From: a virus
Lineage: Duplodnaviria > Heunggongvirae > Uroviricota > Caudoviricetes
Strand: one strand, 5' to 3'
Virus record (IMG/VR): IMGVR_UViG_2623620505_000002
DNA length: 47,971 bases
In this document: positions 17,579 through 47,370 of the stretch, piece after piece
Numbering within the stretch: the first letter of the stretch is position 1
Layout of the letters: every line of letters begins with the position of its first letter
Notes under the pieces: generated by a model
The model's database searches: none
What the model was told of the DNA's origin: nothing
What the model saw: only the letters and a program-made list of their open reading frames with translations
Made by a program: the position numbers and the translations under genes

Positions 17579-17954
17579 TATTCAGCAGGTTATGGAGCGG
17601 TGGGGAGCATGGGCTGCGAACAATCACGAAGATGTGTCATGGGCGTCAATCGCTGCTGGTTTTAAAGGATTAATCCCGCCGAAAGTGAAATCACGCCCTC
17701 AGTGTTCTGATGATGATGCAATGATAATTTGTGGCTGTATGGCCCGGTTGAACAAGAAAAATCAGGATTTGCACGATTTGTTGGTGGATTATTACGTAGG
17801 TGGAATGACTTTTATGGGGTTGGCACGAAAGCATGGGTGTTCGGATACCTGTATTGGCAAGCGCCTGCAGAAAGCGGAAGGGGTTATTGATGGCATGTTG
17901 ATGATGCTTGATATCCGACTGGAGATGGACAGATACGTAGAACGAATCATGTAG
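17568..17954 (+). CDS. Late-gene antiterminator Q
   Basis: 128-aa ORF overlapping the rusA stop; Cys-rich (ICGCMARL ... CSDTC); followed by a promoter-terminator pair typical of PR'/tR'. Confidence 0.65.
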
Positions 17955-17958
17955 GAGC

Positions 17959-17988
17959 TTGACCAGACACATTGTCCGGGGCTATATT
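17959..17988 (+). promoter_or_regulatory. Candidate late promoter PR'
   Basis: TTGACC (17959-17964), 18-nt spacer, TATATT (17983-17988); followed by hairpins CGCCAGcaaaatCTGGCG and TCGGGAttggcgTCCCGA. Confidence 0.4.
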
Positions 17989-18047
17989 CCTCACGCGCCA
18001 GCAAAATCTGGCGTCGGGATTGGCGTCCCGGATGAAAAAGGCGACAA

Positions 18048-18072
18048 CAGACGCGCCAGCGTCTTTTTTATT
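18048..18072 (+). terminator. Rho-independent terminator, tR'-like
   Basis: GACGC gcca GCGTC followed by TTTTTTATT, about 90 nt downstream of the candidate PR'. Confidence 0.55.
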
Positions 18073-18227
18073 GTCGTTTGCACTGTCACATCTCAATGGT
18101 GGGCTGTGTGGGGGCGGAGCGATCCGCGCCGGTTCCTTTTTCCCGGTTACGCCAACCCTGCACAGTTCACCACCATACTGATTGGCGTCAGCAGTGGTGA
18201 TGATTCACATAGAAAAAGGATCATCCT

Positions 18228-18716
18228 ATGGCTATTCAAATCTCAATTGAAACTCTTTCCCCGATCACTCATAACCAAATCCCTGTCATTACTACCGAGC
18301 TTTTGGCACAACTTTATGGCACCGAAACTAATAACATCAAAGTGAACTATACACGCAATGCCGAGCGTTTTGTTTGTGGGAAACACTACTTCAAATTGGA
18401 AGGGGCTGAGTTGCGGGAATTTAAGAACAAGGTTACTCAAAGTAACTTAGTTGCACCGCGTACAAAGCACCTCATCCTCTGGACAGAACGCGGAGCAGCC
18501 CGTCACGCCAAAATGCTGGAAACCGATCAGGCGTGGGAAGTGTTCGAAAAACTGGAAGACTGTTATTTCAGCCAAAAACAACCACCAGCAGCACAAAACA
18601 CCCCAACCCAAAATGATGGATGCGCATTACTGATCCACTTCGATAAACACGGTCAGGTCGACTTCACGGAAAAACTACCCGCCGATGCGATGGTATGCAC
18701 TCTGGAACGGTTTTAA
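18228..18716 (+). CDS. ORF6N-domain protein (antirepressor-type DNA-binding domain)
   Basis: 162 aa; N-terminal segment TTELLAQLYGTETNNIKVNYTRNAERFVCGKHYFKLEG resembles ORF6N/KilA-N class; AAGGA RBS. Confidence 0.55.
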   Translation: MAIQISIETLSPITHNQIPVITTELLAQLYGTETNNIKVNYTRNAERFVCGKHYFKLEGAELREFKNKVTQSNLVAPRTKHLILWTERGAARHAKMLETDQAWEVFEKLEDCYFSQKQPPAAQNTPTQNDGCALLIHFDKHGQVDFTEKLPADAMVCTLERF

Positions 18717-18791
18717 AAATTTTCCCCGAACGCTTTACGATCGTAAAAAGTTGAATATCCTGTTAAGAGTGGTTACTACGCCAAACAGCTT

Positions 18792-18818
18792 AAACCCGCC
18801 ACTGAGCGGGTTTTTTTA
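18792..18818 (+). terminator. Rho-independent terminator after the ORF6N gene
   Basis: CCCGCC actga GCGGG followed by TTTTTTT. Confidence 0.55.
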
Positions 18819-18939
18819 TGCCTGAAAAACGGTACAGGACGTTAAACGCGCTGGTAGTTGCGAATACTGGTCTTTCGGCTTGTATTTTTGTAAATCGATA
18901 TATACTTATCTTGTGACCAGTAATGTCAGGGCAATTGAT

Positions 18940-19683
18940 ATGAATGAAGCTTGTTCTGTTGTTTTTGTTCATTCCCCGTTTGTTGTGCTCTTTGAAGGAA
19001 AAGAGCTCTCTCTGGAAAGTGGTAGTGCACTTCTTGTCAGGGGGGGAGCTGGATCGTTATTGCCCTTTTCGGAATGTTTTCGGCGAATAAGTCTCAGTGA
19101 ATCGACAATTATCCGTTACCTGTTGTGTGGAGACGAAAAACAGGATGTAGTTTTAGTCCGGCAAATACCACGATATCTTTGCGTGAGTTTTCCCAAGGCA
19201 GAATTGATGGGCATCCTGATTGATTATCTTTGTGAGGAAAAGATTCATACGGACAATTTAGCGGAAATGCTTTCCTTTTCGTGTCTGGCGTTTTTCTCAT
19301 CAGAGAAAATGTTTTCGTCGTTTCTGACCGCGTGTATTGGCAATATTAGTGACAGGCTTAGTGCATTGTTTCGTACGGACATTGCAGCAAACTGGACTCT
19401 GAGAGATGTGTCTTCGCGGTTATGTATCAGTGAAAGTTTGTTAAAAAAAAGACTGAAAGAAGAAGGCACCTGTTTCAGTGAGTTGTTGCTTACAGAGAGA
19501 ATGAGAATGGCAGCAATGCTGTTGAATCAATCTCGTTGCGCCATCAACAGAATCGCTGCTCAGTGTGGCTATAATTTTACATCTTATTTTATCAGCGTAT
19601 TCAGGAGTTATTTTGGTGTTACACCGGCAGGTTACAGGATGGCTGCATTCAATGAGATGAGTTTAGGTGTTACTCAAGAATAA
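18940..19683 (+). CDS. AraC/XylS-family transcriptional regulator (prophage cargo)
   Basis: 248 aa from the internal Met; C-terminal AraC-type double HTH (WTLRDVSSRLCISESLLKKRLK ... AINRIAAQCGYNFTSYFISVFRSYFGVTPAGYR); AT-rich. Confidence 0.8.
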   Translation: MNEACSVVFVHSPFVVLFEGKELSLESGSALLVRGGAGSLLPFSECFRRISLSESTIIRYLLCGDEKQDVVLVRQIPRYLCVSFPKAELMGILIDYLCEEKIHTDNLAEMLSFSCLAFFSSEKMFSSFLTACIGNISDRLSALFRTDIAANWTLRDVSSRLCISESLLKKRLKEEGTCFSELLLTERMRMAAMLLNQSRCAINRIAAQCGYNFTSYFISVFRSYFGVTPAGYRMAAFNEMSLGVTQE

Positions 19684-19706
19684 TTGAATTTTGCACTCAT
19701 TGAAAA

Positions 19707-19733
19707 CAGGCTCGCTGCGGCGGGCCTTTTTTA
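19707..19733 (+). terminator. Terminator after the AraC-family gene
   Basis: GGCTCGC tgcg GCGGGCC (one mismatch) followed by TTTTTT. Confidence 0.45.
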
Positions 19734-19821
19734 TATCCGCGCCACGTCCGGCGCACATCACATCAGATAACACCACACAAAAGGTATCTGCGGGTGCCTT
19801 TGACGGGGTGTTGTTTTTTTA

Positions 19822-19848
19822 CGGGCCGACAGTGGCCCTTTTTTATTT
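19822..19848 (+). terminator. Terminator immediately upstream of the lysis genes
   Basis: GGGCC gacagt GGCCC followed by TTTTTTATTT. Confidence 0.55.
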
Positions 19849-19862
19849 ACAGGAGAAAAAGT

Positions 19863-20255
19863 ATGTCTGAACCCTTATCCGGTTCCGGCACGGCTGCGGC
19901 GCTCGGCGGGGCGACGGTATTCGGGCTGTTTACCGGAACGGATTTCGGGATTGTGTTTGGCGCATTTGCCGGGGCGCTGTTTGTGGCCACAATGCCGCAG
20001 GCACTATCTGCCTGGCGTGTGGCAGCGCATTTTCTGGTGTCGTTTATCGTTGGCGTGCTGGGTGCGCATGTGCTGTCAGCCTGGATTGCATCAAAAACAG
20101 GTTATGACGGTACATCGGCGGATGCACTGTGTGCGGTGCTGGTGGCGGTGGTGTCGGTGAAGATTCTCTCGTTCATCCACCAGCAGGATATTGCATCGCT
20201 GGTGTCCGGCCTGTTCTCCCGCCTGCGGGGTGGAGGAGGCGGCAATGTTAAGTAA
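19863..20255 (+). CDS. Holin-like membrane protein
   Basis: 130 aa with three or four hydrophobic helices; AGGAGA RBS; first gene of the lysis cassette. Confidence 0.5.
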   Translation: MSEPLSGSGTAAALGGATVFGLFTGTDFGIVFGAFAGALFVATMPQALSAWRVAAHFLVSFIVGVLGAHVLSAWIASKTGYDGTSADALCAVLVAVVSVKILSFIHQQDIASLVSGLFSRLRGGGGGNVK

Positions 20256-20523
20256 CCTTCCCGGATTGCTGAATGTGGCGTTATGCACGGTTATCGTGCT
20301 GACGCTCTTTTTTTATCGTCGTCGTGATTCCAGACATAAACCGCTGATGTCATGGCTGGCCTGGTTGCTGATGCTGCTGTATGCCTTTGCGCCCCTCAGC
20401 TATCTGTGTGGTCGCCCGTTAGCAACGGGCTGGCTGGAAGTGTTTTTTAACCTGCTGTTCTGCGTGCTGGTGGTTCGTGCTCGTGGGAACGTTTCAAAAA
20501 TCTTTGTATTACGAAGGCGCTGA
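20245..20523 (+). CDS. Second small membrane protein of the lysis cassette (holin/antiholin candidate)
   Basis: 92 aa; GGAGGAGG RBS; two or three hydrophobic helices; overlaps the previous gene by 11 nt. Confidence 0.45.
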   Translation: MLSNLPGLLNVALCTVIVLTLFFYRRRDSRHKPLMSWLAWLLMLLYAFAPLSYLCGRPLATGWLEVFFNLLFCVLVVRARGNVSKIFVLRRR

Positions 20524-20524
20524 G

Positions 20525-21070
20525 ATGAAGTCGAAAGATGAAATTTTTGATGCTGTTCTTGGCAAAGAGGGCGGCTACGTCAACCACCCTGATGATAAAG
20601 GTGGTCCGACTAAATGGGGCATTACTGGAAAAGTTGCCCGTGCACACGGTTATCAGGGGGATATTCGTGACCTGACGCGTGGGCAGGCCCTCGAAATTCT
20701 TGAAGCGGACTACTGGTACGGGCCACGTTTTCACAAGGTTGCGAGCCTGTCTCCGGAGATCGCTGCTGAATTGTGTGATACCGGCGTAAACATGGGGCCG
20801 TCAGTGGCATCCAGAATGCTTCAGCGCTGGCTTAATGTATTTAACCAGAAAGGAGAGTTGTATCCGGACATTGATGCAGATGGTTGTATCGGCCCACGTA
20901 CCATTAATGCGTTACGCGCCTATTTGTCAAAACGTGGCAGGGATGGTGAGTTGGTGATTCTGACAGCGCTAAACTGTACGCAGGGAGATCGCTACCTTGA
21001 ACTGGCAGAAAAACGTGAGGCTAATGAATCGTTCGTGTATGGCTGGATGAAAGAGCGCGTGGTGGTGTAG
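20525..21070 (+). CDS. Endolysin, glycoside hydrolase family 108 with peptidoglycan-binding domain
   Basis: 181 aa; N-terminal EGGYVNHPDDKGGPTKWGIT matches the GH108 signature; follows the holin-like genes. Confidence 0.75.
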   Translation: MKSKDEIFDAVLGKEGGYVNHPDDKGGPTKWGITGKVARAHGYQGDIRDLTRGQALEILEADYWYGPRFHKVASLSPEIAAELCDTGVNMGPSVASRMLQRWLNVFNQKGELYPDIDADGCIGPRTINALRAYLSKRGRDGELVILTALNCTQGDRYLELAEKREANESFVYGWMKERVVV

Positions 21071-21387
21071 TTGGCATTAATGAGGCCAGTAAATCCAACC
21101 TGCGGTTAGCTTGTTATTAGACTTACCGAACAAGAAAAACGACTGGAGAAAGAGTTCGGTTTTTATACCAAACAAAGAGGAGAATATGAATCAGTGAGTA
21201 CAGAGAAAAATCCTCGGCAGATCGTATAAATCTTCTTTTAAAGCCGTCCGTTATGAAAGGAATAGAAAAGAAAGTAACTGCACGTCTTTATGTGACACGG
21301 TCTGCTTTTGCTATTTTTCTTTTGGAGGTTGTTATTTGCGCATCAAGTGCAGATAGAGTTGCCCATCGAGATGGGCAACTTATGATA

Positions 21388-21681
21388 TTATTGTGAGCAA
21401 TATACCCGAGCTTCCAGCGGAGTATAAATGCCGAAAGTGATAAAACCGAGCAATCCATTTACGAATGTTTGCTGGGTTTCAGTCTTAACAACTTTTTCTG
21501 CGCCACCACAAATTTTGGCTGCATCGACAGTTTTCTTCTGACCAATTCCAGAAACGAAGAAATGATGAGTGATGGTTTCCTTCGGTGTTACTGTTGTCGG
21601 TTGGTTTTCAACAGTAAACGTCTGTTGAGCACATCCAGAGATAAGCAGGGCCAGCGTGAAAGTGAGTAGCGTTTTTTTCAT
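21388..21681 (-). CDS. bor: Bor lipoprotein (Bor/Iss serum-resistance family)
   Basis: 97 aa; near-identical by eye to lambda Bor, including the LISGC lipobox. Confidence 0.9.
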   Translation of the reverse strand: MKKTLLTFTLALLISGCAQQTFTVENQPTTVTPKETITHHFFVSGIGQKKTVDAAKICGGAEKVVKTETQQTFVNGLLGFITFGIYTPLEARVYCSQ

Positions 21682-21905: not shown

Positions 21906-22316
21906 TTAGCGTGGAAAAAATTGTGTCGTGTTCTGAATGCTTTCGGTAAACAATAATGAGTTGTCAAAGGTATAGTAATACCTTTTGTGTTCATGGACAT
22001 TTGTAACCCATCGGAAAACTCCAGCCTTAGCCAGATTTTCCCTGTATTCATGAAATGTGATTTCTCTTGATTTCAACTTATGAGAGTAAGTTTCTATAAG
22101 TCGCGTGTCTCTGCGAAATTTAACATTCACAACCTCCTCAAGTCCTTTTATTAACACTGCGTTATCATTTTTCAATACAACGTGAATATTACCTGTGGCT
22201 AAATAGTAAATGTAATGTGAGACATTGTGACGTTTTAGTTCAGAGTAAAATCGGTCACAGTTTAAATCTTTCCGCACTTGATCAAATATTTCTTTAAAAA
22301 TGGCAACCTGAGCCAT
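21906..22316 (-). CDS. YbcV-like protein (DUF1398 class)
   Basis: 136 aa; position after bor as in DLP12; sequence identity recalled, not verified. Confidence 0.55.
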
Positions 22317-22469: not shown

Positions 22470-22778
22470 GTGACTCACATGACAAAAACAGTATCAACCA
22501 GTAAAAAACCCCGTAAACAGCATTCGCCTGAATTTCGCAGTGAAGCCCTGAAGCTTGCTGAACGCATCGGTGTTACTGCCGCAGCCCGTGAACTCAGCCT
22601 GTATGAATCACAGCTCTACAACTGGCGCAGTAAACAGCAAAATCAGCAGACGTCTTCTGAACGTGAACTGGAGATGTCTACCGAGATTGCACGTCTCAAA
22701 CGCCAGCTGGCAGAACGGGATGAAGAGCTGGCTGTCCTCCAAAAGGCCGCGACATACTTCGCGAAGCGCCTGAAATAA
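22470..22778 (+). CDS. insE: IS3 transposase OrfA
   Basis: Product matches IS3 InsE by eye ([32 protein letters not shown]...). Confidence 0.9.
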
Positions 22779-23641
22779 AGTATGTCTTTATTGAAAAACA
22801 TCAGGCTGAGTTCAGCATCAAAGCAATGTGCCGCGTGCTCCGGGTGGCCCGCAGCGGCTGGTATACGTGGTGTCAGCGGCGGACAAGGATAAGCACGCGT
22901 CAGCAGTTCCGCCAACACTGCGACAGCGTTGTCCTCGCGGCTTTTACCCGGTCAAAACAGCGTTACGGTGCCCCACACCTGACGGATGAACTGCGTGCTC
23001 AGGGTTACCCCTTTAACGTAAAAACCGTGGCGGCAAGCCTGCGCCGTCAGGGACTGAGGGCAAAGGCCTCCCGGAAGTTCAGCCCGGTCAGCTACCGTGC
23101 ACACGGCCTGCCTGTGTCAGAAAATCTGTTGGAGCAGGATTTTTACGCCAGTGGCCCGAACCAGAAGTGGGCAGGAGACATCACGTACTTACGTACAGAT
23201 GAAGGCTGGCTGTATCTGGCAGTGGTCATTGACCTGTGGTCACGTGCCGTTATTGGCTGGTCAATGTCGCCACGCATGACGGCGCAACTGGCCTGCGATG
23301 CCCTGCAGATGGCGCAGTGGCGGCGTAAGAGGCCCCGGAACGTTATCGTTCACACGGACCGTGGAGGCCAGTACTGTTCAGCAGATTATCAGGCGCAACT
23401 GAAGCGGCATAATCTGCGTGGAAGTATGAGCGCAAAAGGTTGCTGCTACGATAATGCCTGCGTGGAAAGCTTCTTTCATTCGCTGAAAGTGGAATGTATC
23501 CATGGAGAACACTTTATCAGCCGGGAAATAATGCGGGCAACGGTGTTTAATTATATCGAATGTGATTACAATCGGTGGCGGCGGCACAGTTGGTGTGGCG
23601 GCCTCAGTCCGGAACAATTTGAAAACCAGAACCTCGCTTAG
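22775..23641 (+). CDS. insF: IS3 transposase OrfB (DDE integrase domain), expressed by -1 frameshift from orfA; start approximate
   Basis: Frame overlapping the orfA 3' end; DDE-domain sequence (WAGDITY ... HTDRGGQY ... DNACVESFF). Confidence 0.85.
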
Positions 23642-43279: not shown

Positions 43280-45577
43280 ATGGCAGTAAAGATTTCAGGC
43301 GTGCTTAAAGACGGTGCAGGTAAACCGGTACAGAACTGCACAATTCAGCTGAAAGCAAAACGTAACAGCACCACGGTGGTGGTGAACACGGTGGCCTCAG
43401 AAAATCCGGATGAAGCCGGGCGTTACAGCATGGACGTTGAGTACGGTCAGTACAGCGTTGTTCTGTTGGTGGAAGGGTTCCCGCCGTCACATGCCGGGAC
43501 CATCACCGTGTATGAAGATTCTCAACCCGGTACGCTGAATGATTTTCTCGGTGCCATGACGGAGGATGATGCCCGTCCGGAGGCACTGCGCCGTTTTGAA
43601 CTGATGGTGGAAGAGGTGGCGCGTAACGCGTCCGCGGTGGCACAGAACACGGCAGCCGCGAAGAAGTCAGCCGGCGATGCCGGCACATCGGCCCGTGAGG
43701 CGGCAACCCATGCGACTGATGCTGCAGGCTCAGCACGCGCAGCCAGCACGTCAGCCGGGCAGGCCGCGTCGTCGGCACAGGAAGCGTCTTCCGGTGCAGA
43801 AACGGCATCAGTAAAGGCCACTGAGGCATCAAAAAGTGCAGCCGCTGCAGAGTCCTCGAAAAGCGCGGCGGCCACCAGTGCTGTTGCCGCGAAAACGTCA
43901 GAAACGAATGCGGCAGCGTCACAACAATCAGCCGCCACCTCAGCATCCACCGCGACCGCGAAAGCGTCAGAAGCTGCCACCTCAGCCCGTGAGGCGGAGG
44001 CCTCAAAAGAGGCAGCAAAATCATCAGAAACGAACGCATCATCAAGCGCCAGTGGTGCAGCCTCCTCGGCAACGGCGGCAGAAAATGCCGCGAAGGAGGC
44101 AAAAACATCCGAGATGAACGCCAGGTCTTCTGAAACGGCAGCGGCACAGAGCGCATCCACCGCGGCGGGCTATGAAGCAGCGGCGGCATCATTGGCCGGC
44201 GAGGCATTCGGTAAGGCGGAAGAGGCTGCAGGTAGTGCAGCGGTGGCAGTGCAGAGCAAAAGTTCTGCTGAGTCTGCAGCAACACGCGCAGAAAATGCGG
44301 CAAAACGGGCAGAGGAGATTGCATCTGCTGTGGGCCTGGAAGATGCCAGTACGACCACAAAGGGAGTTGTCAAGCTCAGTAACCGTACTGACAGCACTTC
44401 GCAGACAGAGGCCGCCACATCCCTTGCAGTCAGTAAGGTCATGAATGAGGTGAAGACAAAAGCGTCACTGGATAGTCCGGTCTTCACCGGTACCCCTATG
44501 ACACCGACACCACCGGACGATGCTTCAGGTCTGGAAACAGTGAATGCGGCGTTTGTCCGCAAACTGCTTGCTGCTCTTGTGGGTTCTTCTCCGGAAACCC
44601 TGGACACGCTGAACGAACTGGCGGAGGCGCTGGGTAATGACCCGGCGTTTTCCGTAACGATAATGAAGATGCTGGACGGAAAACAGCCTTTAAATCCCGT
44701 TCTGACTGCGTTAGGCCGTCTTCCATCCGGTGAAGATGGGTTTCCCAGTTTTAGCGGTAACGGGCAGTGTTCTCTGGCTCCTGTTTCTGAAAAAGGGAAA
44801 CAGCTGTTGTCACAATCCACAGCCGAAGAGATGTGTGACGTTCTGGGTATCAATGGAAATAGTGGAAACTCAGCAGCAGGCGGAAATTATGGGCTTCAGT
44901 CAGACATTTATGACAGAACGCAGGGGCGGGCCGCTGTTGCAGGAAGTCTGGGATTCGGGCATATCTTCACAAAAGGTGACGTTCTCAGCTTTTCGTCGAA
45001 GGAAGTGCTTCTTGACTGGATCTCAAATGCCACACCGGGGCGGTATACGGTCAGCGCTGACTGCGAAATTATACCGGAAGTACAGTTTACAGGTGTGATT
45101 GATTTATTTTTCGCTGATGAGATGCGGAATAACCTTACTGTCCCGCTGATGCTGAAGATGGCTGTTTTTTACGGGATGAACGGTGAACTGTATCGGGCAA
45201 CATACGATGCCATACATGGCCCTTCACTGAGTGAATGGGAGAAAATAAATATTGACCTGTATGATATTGCCAAAATCCTGAGCATGACCACAAACGATAA
45301 TTATGGTGATCCGTATGCTGGAAGCATAACACTGGCAGCCTTTAATAGCCGTGGCAGCACTAAAACAGCTAGCGTCGTACGAGGGCAATATTACCCGGGC
45401 TCCGTCCTTACTCCCGTGGTATTCAGTGTTCCGGATGGAGCATTATCGTCGCCGAAGATTGGGCTTTCTGGTACAGAGAAGCACACATTGCCGGGTGTTT
45501 ACCGTGCATTATCCGGAACTCCGGATTACACCGGAGAAGGTGAGTTTATTATTGCTGCTTTTATAAGGACGATGTGA
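43280..45577 (+). CDS. stf: Side tail fibre protein Stf with lambda-like N-terminus and a divergent C-terminal domain
   Basis: N-terminal ~330 aa align to lambda Stf (MAVKISGVLKDGAGKPVQNCTIQLKA ..., Ala/Ser-rich repeats); C-terminal ~300 aa unlike lambda Stf. Confidence 0.85.
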   Translation: MAVKISGVLKDGAGKPVQNCTIQLKAKRNSTTVVVNTVASENPDEAGRYSMDVEYGQYSVVLLVEGFPPSHAGTITVYEDSQPGTLNDFLGAMTEDDARPEALRRFELMVEEVARNASAVAQNTAAAKKSAGDAGTSAREAATHATDAAGSARAASTSAGQAASSAQEASSGAETASVKATEASKSAAAAESSKSAAATSAVAAKTSETNAAASQQSAATSASTATAKASEAATSAREAEASKEAAKSSETNASSSASGAASSATAAENAAKEAKTSEMNARSSETAAAQSASTAAGYEAAAASLAGEAFGKAEEAAGSAAVAVQSKSSAESAATRAENAAKRAEEIASAVGLEDASTTTKGVVKLSNRTDSTSQTEAATSLAVSKVMNEVKTKASLDSPVFTGTPMTPTPPDDASGLETVNAAFVRKLLAALVGSSPETLDTLNELAEALGNDPAFSVTIMKMLDGKQPLNPVLTALGRLPSGEDGFPSFSGNGQCSLAPVSEKGKQLLSQSTAEEMCDVLGINGNSGNSAAGGNYGLQSDIYDRTQGRAAVAGSLGFGHIFTKGDVLSFSSKEVLLDWISNATPGRYTVSADCEIIPEVQFTGVIDLFFADEMRNNLTVPLMLKMAVFYGMNGELYRATYDAIHGPSLSEWEKINIDLYDIAKILSMTTNDNYGDPYAGSITLAAFNSRGSTKTASVVRGQYYPGSVLTPVVFSVPDGALSSPKIGLSGTEKHTLPGVYRALSGTPDYTGEGEFIIAAFIRTM

Positions 45578-46140
45578 TGAAAATAAAAAAAATCAGCGAA
45601 CAAAGGTATCTTGAAACCGGAGATGTTGACTGCATGGTCGTGTTTTCAGGTATGGAAATGCCACTTCCATACACAGCTTCGGCAAATGATACAGCAGAAA
45701 CTGGCCGGCAAATCTGGCAGGAACTGCAGAGTGGCAGATGGGGTGAAATCGCCCCGTTCACAGTCACGCCTGAAGTTATTGCCGCAGCCAGAGATGCCAA
45801 AAAGCGGGAAATCGAAGCCTGGCGCACAGAACAGGAAGCGCAGCCGTTCACGTTCGAATGGAACGGTCGTACCTGGAATGCTGGGGCCGACTCACTGGCT
45901 CGTCTTTATCCGGCAGTAATGGCATCAAAGTCTGACACTGCGCGAAAAACCATGGTATGGGGCGATGCAGAAAACCAGCAGGTGAAACTGTCGATGCAAC
46001 AACTGGATGAACTGCTTACTGCAATGGTTCAGGCACAGGTCGATCGCAATGACGAGATTTATCGTCGCCAGCGGGAGATGAAGGAAGAGCTGAATAATAT
46101 GGCGGATTTGAAGTCGGTGAGGAATTTCGTGCCAGAATAA
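45574..46140 (+). CDS. Putative tail-fibre assembly chaperone (non-canonical Tfa)
   Basis: 188-aa ORF overlapping the stf stop (ATGA); lacks the typical Tfa terminal motifs, so assignment is by position. Confidence 0.5.
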   Translation: MMKIKKISEQRYLETGDVDCMVVFSGMEMPLPYTASANDTAETGRQIWQELQSGRWGEIAPFTVTPEVIAAARDAKKREIEAWRTEQEAQPFTFEWNGRTWNAGADSLARLYPAVMASKSDTARKTMVWGDAENQQVKLSMQQLDELLTAMVQAQVDRNDEIYRRQREMKEELNNMADLKSVRNFVPE

Positions 46141-46365: not shown

Positions 46366-47370
46366 CTAGTTTGCTTTGCTCCCAACCATCTCTCTGATTC
46401 TGGCTAACTCATCATCATTAAACAGATCCTGTATATCTGAATCCAAGCGCGCCAAAACTTTTTCTATGATTTTTTTCTGCAAGGGTTTATGCGCCTCTTT
46501 CTCTGGAGTAACAGTCAAAGCTTTCATAATGAAATCTTTAACTTCTTGTTCATCTTTATGCTGCTTAGATAGCAAAAGGTAACAACCCATGTTGTAAAGC
46601 AAGACTGGATTTGTTTTATCTTTCACTAATAATTTTTTAACAATTTCCAGCGCGCCTGCAATATCATCAATTCGCTTTAGGGTAAATGCTTTCAAAACCA
46701 TGAATCTGTCAAATGAATGATAGTCATCTTCTTCATTGATTTCTCTAAGCCCCTCATCTAAAAAAGCAAGGGCATCATTGTATTTCTTCTTAGAAGCTAG
46801 CTTATCTTCTTCAGTTGTTTTCTCACCATATCGCTGACCTGACTCTACAGCATCTTTAGCTTTCAAATACAGCAGTTCGAGCCTGATTTTTTTCTCATTG
46901 CTCTTGATTTGCTTATTCTCATTAACTAAAGCTTCGATAGAGTGTTTGGCTTCTTTTTGCTCCTGGCCAATCTCTTGCACCTGGCTCTGAAGAACTTTGT
47001 TTGCAATGTTATCAAGTAGCCCATAACCAAGATAGGAAGCTATGCCTGCAAGAGATATCAGCATGAACAACTGTTCAATGTATACGGCTGCTGTTGTATC
47101 GGCTAGCGGAAGCAAAAGTGACTGATAATTTAGATGTAGAAATGAAGCTATGAAGGGGACGCAGATAAAAGCAGCACCAATACCTATCATATGCGTGCTA
47201 CCAATGAACTTGTTGTCACTAGTATCGCTGTTTTTTCCAGTTCGAAGCGTGCTTCCGAGCAGAGCTCCCATCACTATTACTAAAGCGAGAAAAAGAAAAT
47301 TAAGAAGGGCTATCACAGATTTACTTGTCAAGACAGCCAGACAGAATTCGATTGTCATACTTTGGTCCAT
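46366..47370 (-). CDS. Membrane protein with three N-terminal helices and a coiled-coil/TPR-like cytoplasmic domain (b-region cargo)
   Basis: 334 aa; hydrophobic segments at about residues 18-40, 62-80 and 100-120; Lys/Glu-rich helical region and TPR-like repeats; markedly AT-rich; own terminator. Confidence 0.6.
   Translation of the reverse strand: MDQSMTIEFCLAVLTSKSVIALLNFLFLALVIVMGALLGSTLRTGKNSDTSDNKFIGSTHMIGIGAAFICVPFIASFLHLNYQSLLLPLADTTAAVYIEQLFMLISLAGIASYLGYGLLDNIANKVLQSQVQEIGQEQKEAKHSIEALVNENKQIKSNEKKIRLELLYLKAKDAVESGQRYGEKTTEEDKLASKKKYNDALAFLDEGLREINEEDDYHSFDRFMVLKAFTLKRIDDIAGALEIVKKLLVKDKTNPVLLYNMGCYLLLSKQHKDEQEVKDFIMKALTVTPEKEAHKPLQKKIIEKVLARLDSDIQDLFNDDELARIREMVGSKAN

Follow-up and report, generated by a model that had tools for sequence, protein, structure and literature searches.

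The window analysed here is a stretch of 47,971 nucleotides (nt) recorded in IMG/VR as a Caudoviricetes virus (IMGVR_UViG_2623620505_000002), and it is a lambdoid prophage of Escherichia coli. The interval of interest (18076-19850) lies between its Q antiterminator gene and its holin gene, and is considered here together with the sequence just upstream. It is 100% identical to strain VG12A2, where the prophage adjoins potC, the site at which Sakai Sp6 and EDL933 CP-933N are also integrated. The initial annotation had placed in this interval two cargo genes, an ORF6N-domain gene and an AraC-family regulator gene, behind a PR' promoter and a tR' terminator. Both genes are indeed present, as are terminators at 18792-18813, 19708-19727 and 19823-19838 before the holin gene. 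Beyond that annotation, an IsrK-like small RNA (17995-18069) and a C4-type antisense RNA (18092-18177) were found at or just before the start of the interval, as well as a deletion in the ORF6N gene. We consider it likely that this part of the potC-inserted lambdoid prophage is a late-leader region of mosaic origin, made of two unrelated units, an RNA-controlled antirepressor module and an AraC moron. The features on which this reading is built are the following (positions are those of the window; ORF, open reading frame; aa, amino acids).

17959-17988, plus strand: promoter of the IsrK module, TTGACC-N18-TATATT, 10 of 12 consensus positions
17982-18034: c4-a1b1 (RF03163), 52.2 bits, above the gathering score
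17995-18069, plus strand: IsrK-like small RNA (RF01394), 79.4 bits against a gathering score of 50
18019-18026, plus strand: b1 element, within the second IsrK hairpin
18034-18041, plus strand: a1 element, GAAAAAGG, within IsrK
18092-18177, plus strand: C4-type antisense RNA (RF01695), 74 bits against a gathering score of 45
18096-18200, plus strand: orf45-like small ORF of 34 codons, overlapping C4 and ending 27 nt before the ORF6N ATG
18134-18142, plus strand: a' element, UCCUUUUUC, in the C4 hairpin loop
18149-18156, plus strand: b' element, in the unpaired joint of C4
18181-18188, plus strand: b2 element, downstream of C4
18212-18220, plus strand: a2 element, GAAAAAGGA, over the Shine-Dalgarno sequence of the ORF6N gene
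18228-18716, plus strand: putative AnrP-like ORF6N antirepressor gene (Pfam PF10543), C-terminally truncated, 162 aa
18792-18813, plus strand: Rho-independent terminator, native to the 3' end of the antirepressor gene, -12.4 kcal/mol
18814-18882, plus strand: generic leader, matching strains TUM9757 (locus L025, 4086-4260) and STEC308 (locus L024, 5113-5204)
18883-19707, plus strand: AraC-specific cassette of about 825 bp, 40.6% GC, with bounds taken from prophages that carry other cargo
18901-18908, plus strand: -10-like TATACTTA, 32 nt upstream of the AraC ATG
18940-19683, plus strand: AraC/XylS-family regulator gene, 247 aa, intact
19708-19727, plus strand: strong terminator 3' of the AraC gene, part of a generic pre-holin leader, -17.8 kcal/mol, z -4.57
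19823-19838, plus strand: terminator 25 nt before the holin start

The RNA part of the interval is in line with a C4-type control circuit. The IsrK-like RNA comprises a pair of hairpins, an unpaired linker and a terminator of the Rho-independent type (18049-18064 and its U-tract). The C4 RNA, whose counterpart in the Salmonella prophage Gifsy-1 is the STnc1160/orf45 region (itself called C4 by Rfam), has a minimum free energy of -43.5 kcal/mol (z -4.36), with a' and b' unpaired in the minimum free energy fold, and its stems carry compensatory changes relative to Gifsy-1. The a' element is perfectly complementary to a2 over 9 nt, and a2 spans the Shine-Dalgarno sequence, 7 nt before the ORF6N ATG. 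Covariation was assessed over four loci: the window, Gifsy-1, a phage encoding Shiga toxin (Stx) 1c (locus L013) and a copy at a prophage end (locus L018). At each of them the b element is found in triplicate (b1, b' and b2), and its copies change together from one locus to another, as GGCGU/ACGCC, GGAAC/GUUCC and GGUCU/AGACC. At all four loci, every position of the b1-b' and b'-b2 helices pairs (100%), with 3 of 7 pairs per helix compensatory, while slid controls pair at just 18-50%. The a1, a' and a2 elements likewise covary, their Gifsy-1 versions being a' CGGUGAU, a1 UCACCG and a2 AUCACCG. These comparisons rest on explicit element tables and pair counts, RNAduplex energy matrices between C4 and downstream targets being too noisy to reveal specificity. 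By our own mapping onto the alignment of the window with Gifsy-1, the Gifsy-1 compensatory mutants G28A/C162U and G31A/C159U of Table 1 in PMC4825925 fall on b1 and b'. The covariation thus supports a C4-type mechanism as the probable mode of control at the window locus.

In Gifsy-1, whose isrK promoter already works without induction, transcripts that read through the IsrK terminator form an orf45-anrP mRNA which is not translated; short IsrK activates its translation in trans, AnrP in turn brings about induction of antQ and the prophage, and a stable RNA named STnc1160 was described over orf45 (Hershko-Shalev et al. 2016, PMC4825925). The window and Gifsy-1 share the order Q, promoter, IsrK with its terminator, C4-like RNA, ORF6N antirepressor, cargo and lysis genes, with 83% nucleotide identity over the stretch between the Q stop and the start of the antirepressor gene; their Q families are unrelated (18% identity). 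They differ in several respects. Gifsy-1 orf45 has 45 codons and a stop that overlaps the anrP ATG (ATGA), neither of which is conserved in the window, where the a' loop differs in length by 2 nt, which puts the orf45-like ORF out of frame with Gifsy-1 orf45 (locus L012, 3871-4004). The a elements of the window differ in sequence from those of Gifsy-1, implying another specificity, the antirepressor has lost 24 residues, no IsrJ homolog is present in the window, and the cargo is an AraC gene instead of tRNA-Arg and GogA.

A second relative is the immI region of P1, in which C4 controls Ant (PMC8201110). The likeness to P1/P7 immI (c4-icd-ant) lies in the C4 family RNA (RF01695), in targets both upstream (a1/b1) and downstream (a2/b2) of it, and in a downstream target that covers a ribosome-binding site ahead of the antirepressor gene. 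By contrast, the window lacks icd, a2 covers the antirepressor's own Shine-Dalgarno sequence, the antirepressor is an ORF6N protein as opposed to Ant1/2, and the prophage is lambdoid, unlike P1/P7. When a coupled ORF resembling icd or orf45 was sought between C4 and the antirepressor gene, only the non-conserved 34-codon ORF was found. Judged from these comparisons, the RNA-antirepressor module of the window is orthologous, in E. coli, to the IsrK locus of Gifsy-1 and is related to P1 immI.

From a mechanistic point of view, the circuit would operate as follows. A constitutive-looking promoter would yield a short IsrK RNA ending at its own terminator, and the transcript that reads through would comprise the C4-type antisense RNA and then the mRNA for the antirepressor. 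Through its exposed a' and b', C4 would pair with a2 and b2, situated across the antirepressor Shine-Dalgarno sequence and just 5' of it, and leave the mRNA untranslated. The a1 and b1 elements of IsrK would act as decoy targets, so that excess IsrK would release the mRNA and allow the antirepressor to be made, which in turn would inactivate the prophage repressor.

The ORF6N gene, which the initial annotation had counted as cargo, is instead the antirepressor gene of this module, homologous to the isrK-orf45-anrP module of Gifsy-1 and truncated at its 3' end. Its ORF6N domain (PF10543) is recognised with an E-value of 1.2e-21 (77.2 bits); the predicted antirepressor function rests on a match to phrog_2379, annotated as anti-repressor (261.9 bits, profile positions 1-163 of 187 covered), and on similarity to STM2616/AnrP of Gifsy-1 (58-59% identity). 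Homologs at 94-96% identity have 186 aa, and the wider family 184-195 aa, while homology of the window protein ends at residue 162 and the remaining 24 codons are untraceable in any frame. A 72-bp deletion between short CGGTTT repeats (around 18711-18716) removes K163-F186, in frame and with the native stop kept. In the collinear loci of STEC308 (identical Q protein) and TUM9757 (close Q), the ORF6N gene is full length, with the same 3' flank and terminator. Recombination with the AraC cassette was considered as the origin of this 3' end and rejected, as the collinear full-length loci reveal an internal deletion of 72 bp with the native flank retained. As a separate observation, antirepressor C-termini differ between copies of the module.

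The promoter of the module is the sole sigma-70-like site in 17500-20500 and lies directly 5' of IsrK. The initial annotation had read it, with the following terminator, as PR' and tR', which leads to a different view of the interval: the ORF6N and AraC genes would be late-operon cargo comparable to stx, expressed essentially upon Q antitermination only. Several observations speak for this view. The promoter begins 5 nt past the Q stop codon, the classical position of PR', and the layout is that of a PR'/tR' pair, with a promoter immediately after Q and a short terminated transcript predicted. No other consensus-like promoter lies between Q and the holin gene, 35 of 5,426 genomes share the Q-IsrK junction, some of them in 88-93% diverged copies, and the AraC gene stands behind a strong terminator without a consensus sigma-70 promoter. 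However, the promoter is conserved in Gifsy-1, in the Stx1c phage and in the prophage-end copy, and the same promoter, IsrK and C4 occur away from this position: in the nin region of the Stx1c phage, about 3 kb upstream of Q (locus L013, 3766-4666), ahead of an ant gene in the mid-genome nin region of many Stx1 and Stx2 phages (promoter, IsrK and C4 at 96% identity), and beside tail-fibre genes at a prophage end (locus L018, 3760-4561). The module is moreover found behind Q proteins of unrelated Pfam families, PF06323 in Gifsy-1 and PF06530 in the window, which are 18% identical (Gifsy-1 AntQ). Conversely, the close relatives of the window Q protein, QuuD of DLP12 (80% identity) and Q of Sakai Sp4 (82%), are followed by unrelated DNA: a QuuD-type late promoter was sought by comparing the sequence downstream of DLP12 quuD and of Sp4 Q with the window, and no similarity was found. 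Finally, the Gifsy-1 isrK promoter is active without induction (PMC4825925), and an invariant -10-like TATACTTA precedes the AraC gene (see below). Expression of both genes as late-operon cargo therefore seems rather unlikely to us. Because the same promoter, IsrK and C4 are found away from Q and behind unrelated Q families, the IsrK-C4-antirepressor module is portable and brings its own promoter; the PR'/tR' assignment does not hold as it was stated, the promoter and terminator belonging to this module and the supposed tR' being the IsrK terminator. The promoter may possibly serve, in addition, as a putative late promoter for Q.

The stacking of terminators noted in the initial annotation was borne out, with four strong ones between the sole consensus-like promoter and the holin gene. 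A scan for hairpins followed by a U-tract returned 7 sites, against 3.6 +/- 2.0 in shuffled sequences, and four of the hairpins (18049-18064, 18792-18813, 19708-19727 and 19823-19838) are intergenic and on the plus strand, with energies of -10.8 to -17.8 kcal/mol (z -2.9 to -4.6). With these four terminators, lysis and morphogenesis genes would be reachable solely by antiterminated transcription. Rfam matches below threshold within 18746-19738 (Trp leader, rsmX, TarB and STnc100) were dismissed as terminator look-alikes.

Comparison with other prophages then separates the cargo from its surroundings. The 18792-18813 terminator also follows the full-length ORF6N gene of TUM9757 and STEC308, and after the generic leader these two carry a small ORF and a DNA methyltransferase gene in place of the AraC gene. 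In SA31-1, STEC307 and A2, which have other Q types, the AraC cassette comes directly after Q, and a hairpin homologous to 18792-18813 sits 83-84 nt past the Q stop, where it is likely to be their tR'. The 19708-19727 terminator is common to TUM9757 and W13-16, outside an AraC context, and in other prophages the generic leaders flank methyltransferase or tRNA cargo. In a related observation, the pre-holin leader junctions near 18882 and 19760-19767 are reused for tRNA-Gly, tRNA-Thr and DNA methyltransferases (loci L016, 4771-4845; L017, 4354-5386; L025, 4318-6034). The arrangement resembles the slot of Stx phages (Q-PR'-tR'-tRNAs/stx-S) in having accessory genes between Q and the holin gene, in late orientation and bracketed by terminators; it differs in that the promoter next to the window Q belongs to the IsrK module and the dependence of the cargo on Q is putative.

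The AraC gene is true cargo in this Q-to-lysis slot, as the initial annotation had proposed, and a precedent exists in PsrA (ecs1087), a characterised prophage AraC regulator encoded at this position in O157 Sakai Sp4. The AT-richness reported for it is likewise confirmed, the ORF having 41.8% GC against 51.1% for the whole window. With regard to the usual marks of a moron, low GC is seen, and a strong terminator follows, but in the generic pre-holin leader, while only the -10-like TATACTTA, and no sigma-70 consensus, precedes the gene. As part of the explanation that we favour, the cassette at 18883-19707 is probably a moron of low GC with a YdeO/PatE/Psr-like product.

The protein scores above the Pfam cut-offs for HTH_18 (51.5 bits) and HTH_AraC (49.9 bits), both with E around 1e-13, and its DNA-binding domain matches GadX in the Protein Data Bank (E 2.2e-22). 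In the predicted structure, this domain superimposes on GadX (3mkl) with a TM (template modelling) score of 0.90-0.92 and a root-mean-square deviation of about 1 A, and the overall architecture is like that of Rns, CsvR and ToxT, although confidence is low for the N-terminal domain of the AlphaFold model, with a pLDDT (predicted local distance difference test) of around 50-70. Full-length alignments over 232-250 residues gave 39% identity to PatE, 36% to YdeO, 36% to GadW, 35% to PsrA and 30% to AppY, a comparison with known prophage AraC regulators which the initial annotation had called for; here we take ECs_0287 of Sakai Sp1 to be PatE from its OI-8/Sp1 position and its length. The N-terminal MxxxCSV motif of the clade is shared, with C5 invariant and S6 and V7 nearly so, and the recognition helix SESLLKK.LK.E is near-identical across the clade. 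By these features, the protein can be placed in the YdeO/GadW/AppY/PatE/Psr clade. Its best NCBIfam model is YdeO (NF007407), and, because it reaches 147.1 bits where the equivalog cut-off is 348, it is a YdeO paralog and the ortholog of none of YdeO, GadW, AppY and PatE. In PHROGs it belongs to phrog_1450, labelled "unknown function", and PADLOC assigned it to no defence system, returning weak ORF6N-domain matches only.

Among these relatives, PsrA is likewise prophage-borne and shares its Q-to-lysis position with the window gene; the Q ahead of it is 82% identical to the window Q, and its upstream leader is partly homologous to the window (77% identity). However, PsrA is just 35% identical to the window protein while PsrA and PsrB are 90% identical to each other, so that, judged by identity, the window protein would be neither PsrA nor PsrB. 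In Sp4, psrA is preceded by two other genes and followed by the ileZ, argN and argO tRNAs, and the Q-to-lysis region of the window holds no annotated effector loci or pch genes. PatE (z0321, OI-8/Sp1), YdeO, GadW and AppY are of similar size (242-253 aa) and alignable over their full length; PatE, AppY and a paralog in mEp332 lie beyond tail-fibre genes, not after Q, and YdeO and GadW are chromosomal whereas the window gene is prophage-borne. On the location of psrA itself, one paper from 2026 places it in Sakai Sp4 (PMC13502914), in agreement with the Sakai record, whereas two reviews put it (z1789) on OI-50 (PMC10877973, PMC8565820), which looks like an inconsistency in island numbering. Sakai Sp6, Sp7 and Sp10 and EDL933 CP-933N, to which the O-island numbers of the two reviews would lead for psrA and psrB, were rejected as locations, having no AraC gene there; psrB was not recovered.

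The gene was found in 64 of 5,426 complete E. coli genomes, as two groups of alleles, one at 95% identity or above and the other at about 90%; among sequenced phages, none has it above 60% identity. Carriers are mainly livestock and wildlife isolates (cattle, buffalo, sheep meat, pig, platypus, otter and bat), and include Shiga toxin-producing E. coli (STEC) and porcine enterotoxigenic E. coli (ETEC)/O139, the 90% allele being concentrated in porcine ETEC/O139:H1 strains. When the two main alleles are compared, the ratio of nonsynonymous to synonymous substitution rates (dN/dS) amounts to 0.29; taken by halves, it is 0.21 for the DNA-binding part and 0.41 for the N-terminal part. The gene is intact and evolves under purifying selection. 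In the four other genome contexts that were examined, it also stands after Q and before a PF16931 holin gene, and, the window included, the Q proteins behind the cassette belong to three Pfam families (PF06530, PF03589 and DUF1133).

This recurrent position raises the question of whether the AraC protein would regulate phage functions, such as the linked lysis cassette, rather than host genes, given that the same PF16931 holin cassette lies downstream in all four other contexts whatever the type of Q. A shared generic pre-holin leader explains this linkage equally well, however, and prophages with the same holin do without the gene: the wider segment that includes the holin start matches 1,561 genomes, just 64 of which carry AraC. 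Moreover, every characterised member of the clade acts on host acid-resistance promoters (PMC10877973, PMC10057817). Regulation of phage functions is thus very improbable in our view.

Several observations weigh against an interval made of a working antirepressor module and an active AraC moron. The orf45 frame, needed for translational coupling in the Gifsy-1 study, is not conserved in the window, and therefore the published mechanism cannot hold unchanged; we infer that the conserved functional core would be the RNA-RNA contacts and not the orf45 peptide. The antirepressor lacks its C-terminal 24 residues, and as a result the switch may be crippled in the window; because of the 72-bp deletion, the identical VG12A2 locus is annotated by NCBI as a pseudogene ("missing C-terminus"). 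The prophage carries two insertion sequences, an IS110-family element (ISEc20) in the nin region (12836-14032) and an IS3 element between the lysis cassette and the terminase genes (22470-23641), and for this reason may be defective. The AraC gene is broken by fragmentation or frameshifts in some genomes, such as those of strains C3 and C7, no sigma-70 consensus promoter was detected ahead of it in the scan of 17500-20500, and its product is just 30-40% identical to characterised regulators, so that its target set could differ.

Taken further, the pseudogene flag with its 24 lost codons, the two insertion sequences and the broken AraC copies, together with the lack of a spanin ORF after the endolysin, could point to mere decay, in which the interval would be a non-functional remnant of a defective prophage: the antirepressor would be dead, and the AraC gene would be kept silent by H-NS and have no phenotype. 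Yet the ORF6N deletion is in frame and keeps the native stop and terminator, and the AraC ORF is full length with respect to all its relatives, with the low dN/dS given above, above all in its DNA-binding half. Moreover, 64 genomes keep it intact, and Q background differs among the five contexts that were compared, window included. Decay of the whole interval is accordingly, to our mind, quite unlikely.

Expression of the AraC gene may depend on a promoter of its own. The segment GATATATACTTATCTT, which contains TATACTTA, is invariant in five AraC alleles despite variable flanks, and we take TATACTTA at 18901-18908 to resemble an extended -10 element of the sigma-S type. The presence of this invariant -10-like element upstream of the ATG suggests that the gene has its own putative promoter. 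In the lysogen, it would probably be transcribed from this weak sigma-S-like promoter, to which Q-modified polymerase could add transcription during induction, and coupling of AraC expression to Q is thus possible. A bolder proposal is that a single Q-driven transcript links antirepressor feedback, the AraC regulator and lysis, the IsrK promoter doubling as late promoter. We regard this as unlikely and put it forward tentatively. If true, it would create a positive-feedback commitment switch, in which Q leads to read-through, read-through to antirepressor and antirepressor to more Q, and it would couple a burst of a host acid-resistance or virulence regulator to prophage induction, as is the case for Stx production in Stx phages.

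As for the targets of the regulator, PatE, PsrB and AppY directly activate gadE and/or hdeA, PsrA induces GadE, gadE expression is modulated by GadW, GadX and YdeO, and LEE (locus of enterocyte effacement) secretion is repressed by PsrA and PsrB via GadE (PMC10877973, PMC10057817). By homology, action on the acid-fitness island, through control of gadE or hdeA, is the likeliest role of the window protein. It would most likely bind AT-rich promoters of this island (gadE, hdeAB) and so make the host more acid-resistant, and where that host is LEE-positive, type III secretion could be lowered by it. Prophage AraC regulators (PsrA/B, PatE and AppY) feed the GadE acid-resistance circuit and, in enterohaemorrhagic E. 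coli, affect type III secretion and persistence in ruminants. The window gene is a deep-branching and uncharacterised member of the PsrA/B-PatE-AppY group, and, since its carriers come mainly from cattle, sheep, buffalo and pigs, it could aid survival of gastric acid in livestock reservoirs.

Both units are of known kinds, and to the slot already known for PsrA the window adds an uncharacterised PsrA/B-PatE-YdeO paralog. Current understanding is not overturned, the AraC gene and the module being mostly new examples of known things. The IsrK/C4 antirepressor switch occurs widely, as a module, in prophages of E. coli and in Stx phages; to our knowledge, it has been studied in Salmonella Gifsy-1 only.

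The genes that surround the interval are listed below; those up to the GH108 endolysin gene were identified from Pfam matches and RefSeq annotation.

16145-17194: DUF968 gene
17207-17578: RusA gene
17571-17954, plus strand: Q antiterminator gene, 127 aa, PF06530 (E 2.5e-52), DLP12 QuuD family
19863-21070, plus strand: lysis cassette as a whole (PF16931 holin, 3TM holin, GH108 endolysin)
19863-20255, plus strand: holin, PF16931
20245-20523, plus strand: 3TM holin
20525-21070, plus strand: GH108 endolysin
21388-21681, minus strand: bor gene
21906-22316: DUF1398 gene

No Rz/Rz1 spanin-like ORF was found after the GH108 endolysin up to the reverse-strand bor gene (21070-21388). Upstream of the DUF968-RusA-Q block lies a toxin-antitoxin pair of the hok/sok type at 14709-15033 (sok RNA RF01794, 111.7 bits; hokD); Sakai Sp4 and several AraC-bearing prophages show this arrangement too. 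Towards the right end, a tail-fibre gene (43280-45577) and a DUF4376 gene (45574-46140) are followed by an ORF of 334 aa on the minus strand (46366-47370) with low GC (0.37-0.41). For this ORF, Pfam gave only a sub-threshold YLATT match and PADLOC none; it may be another cargo gene.

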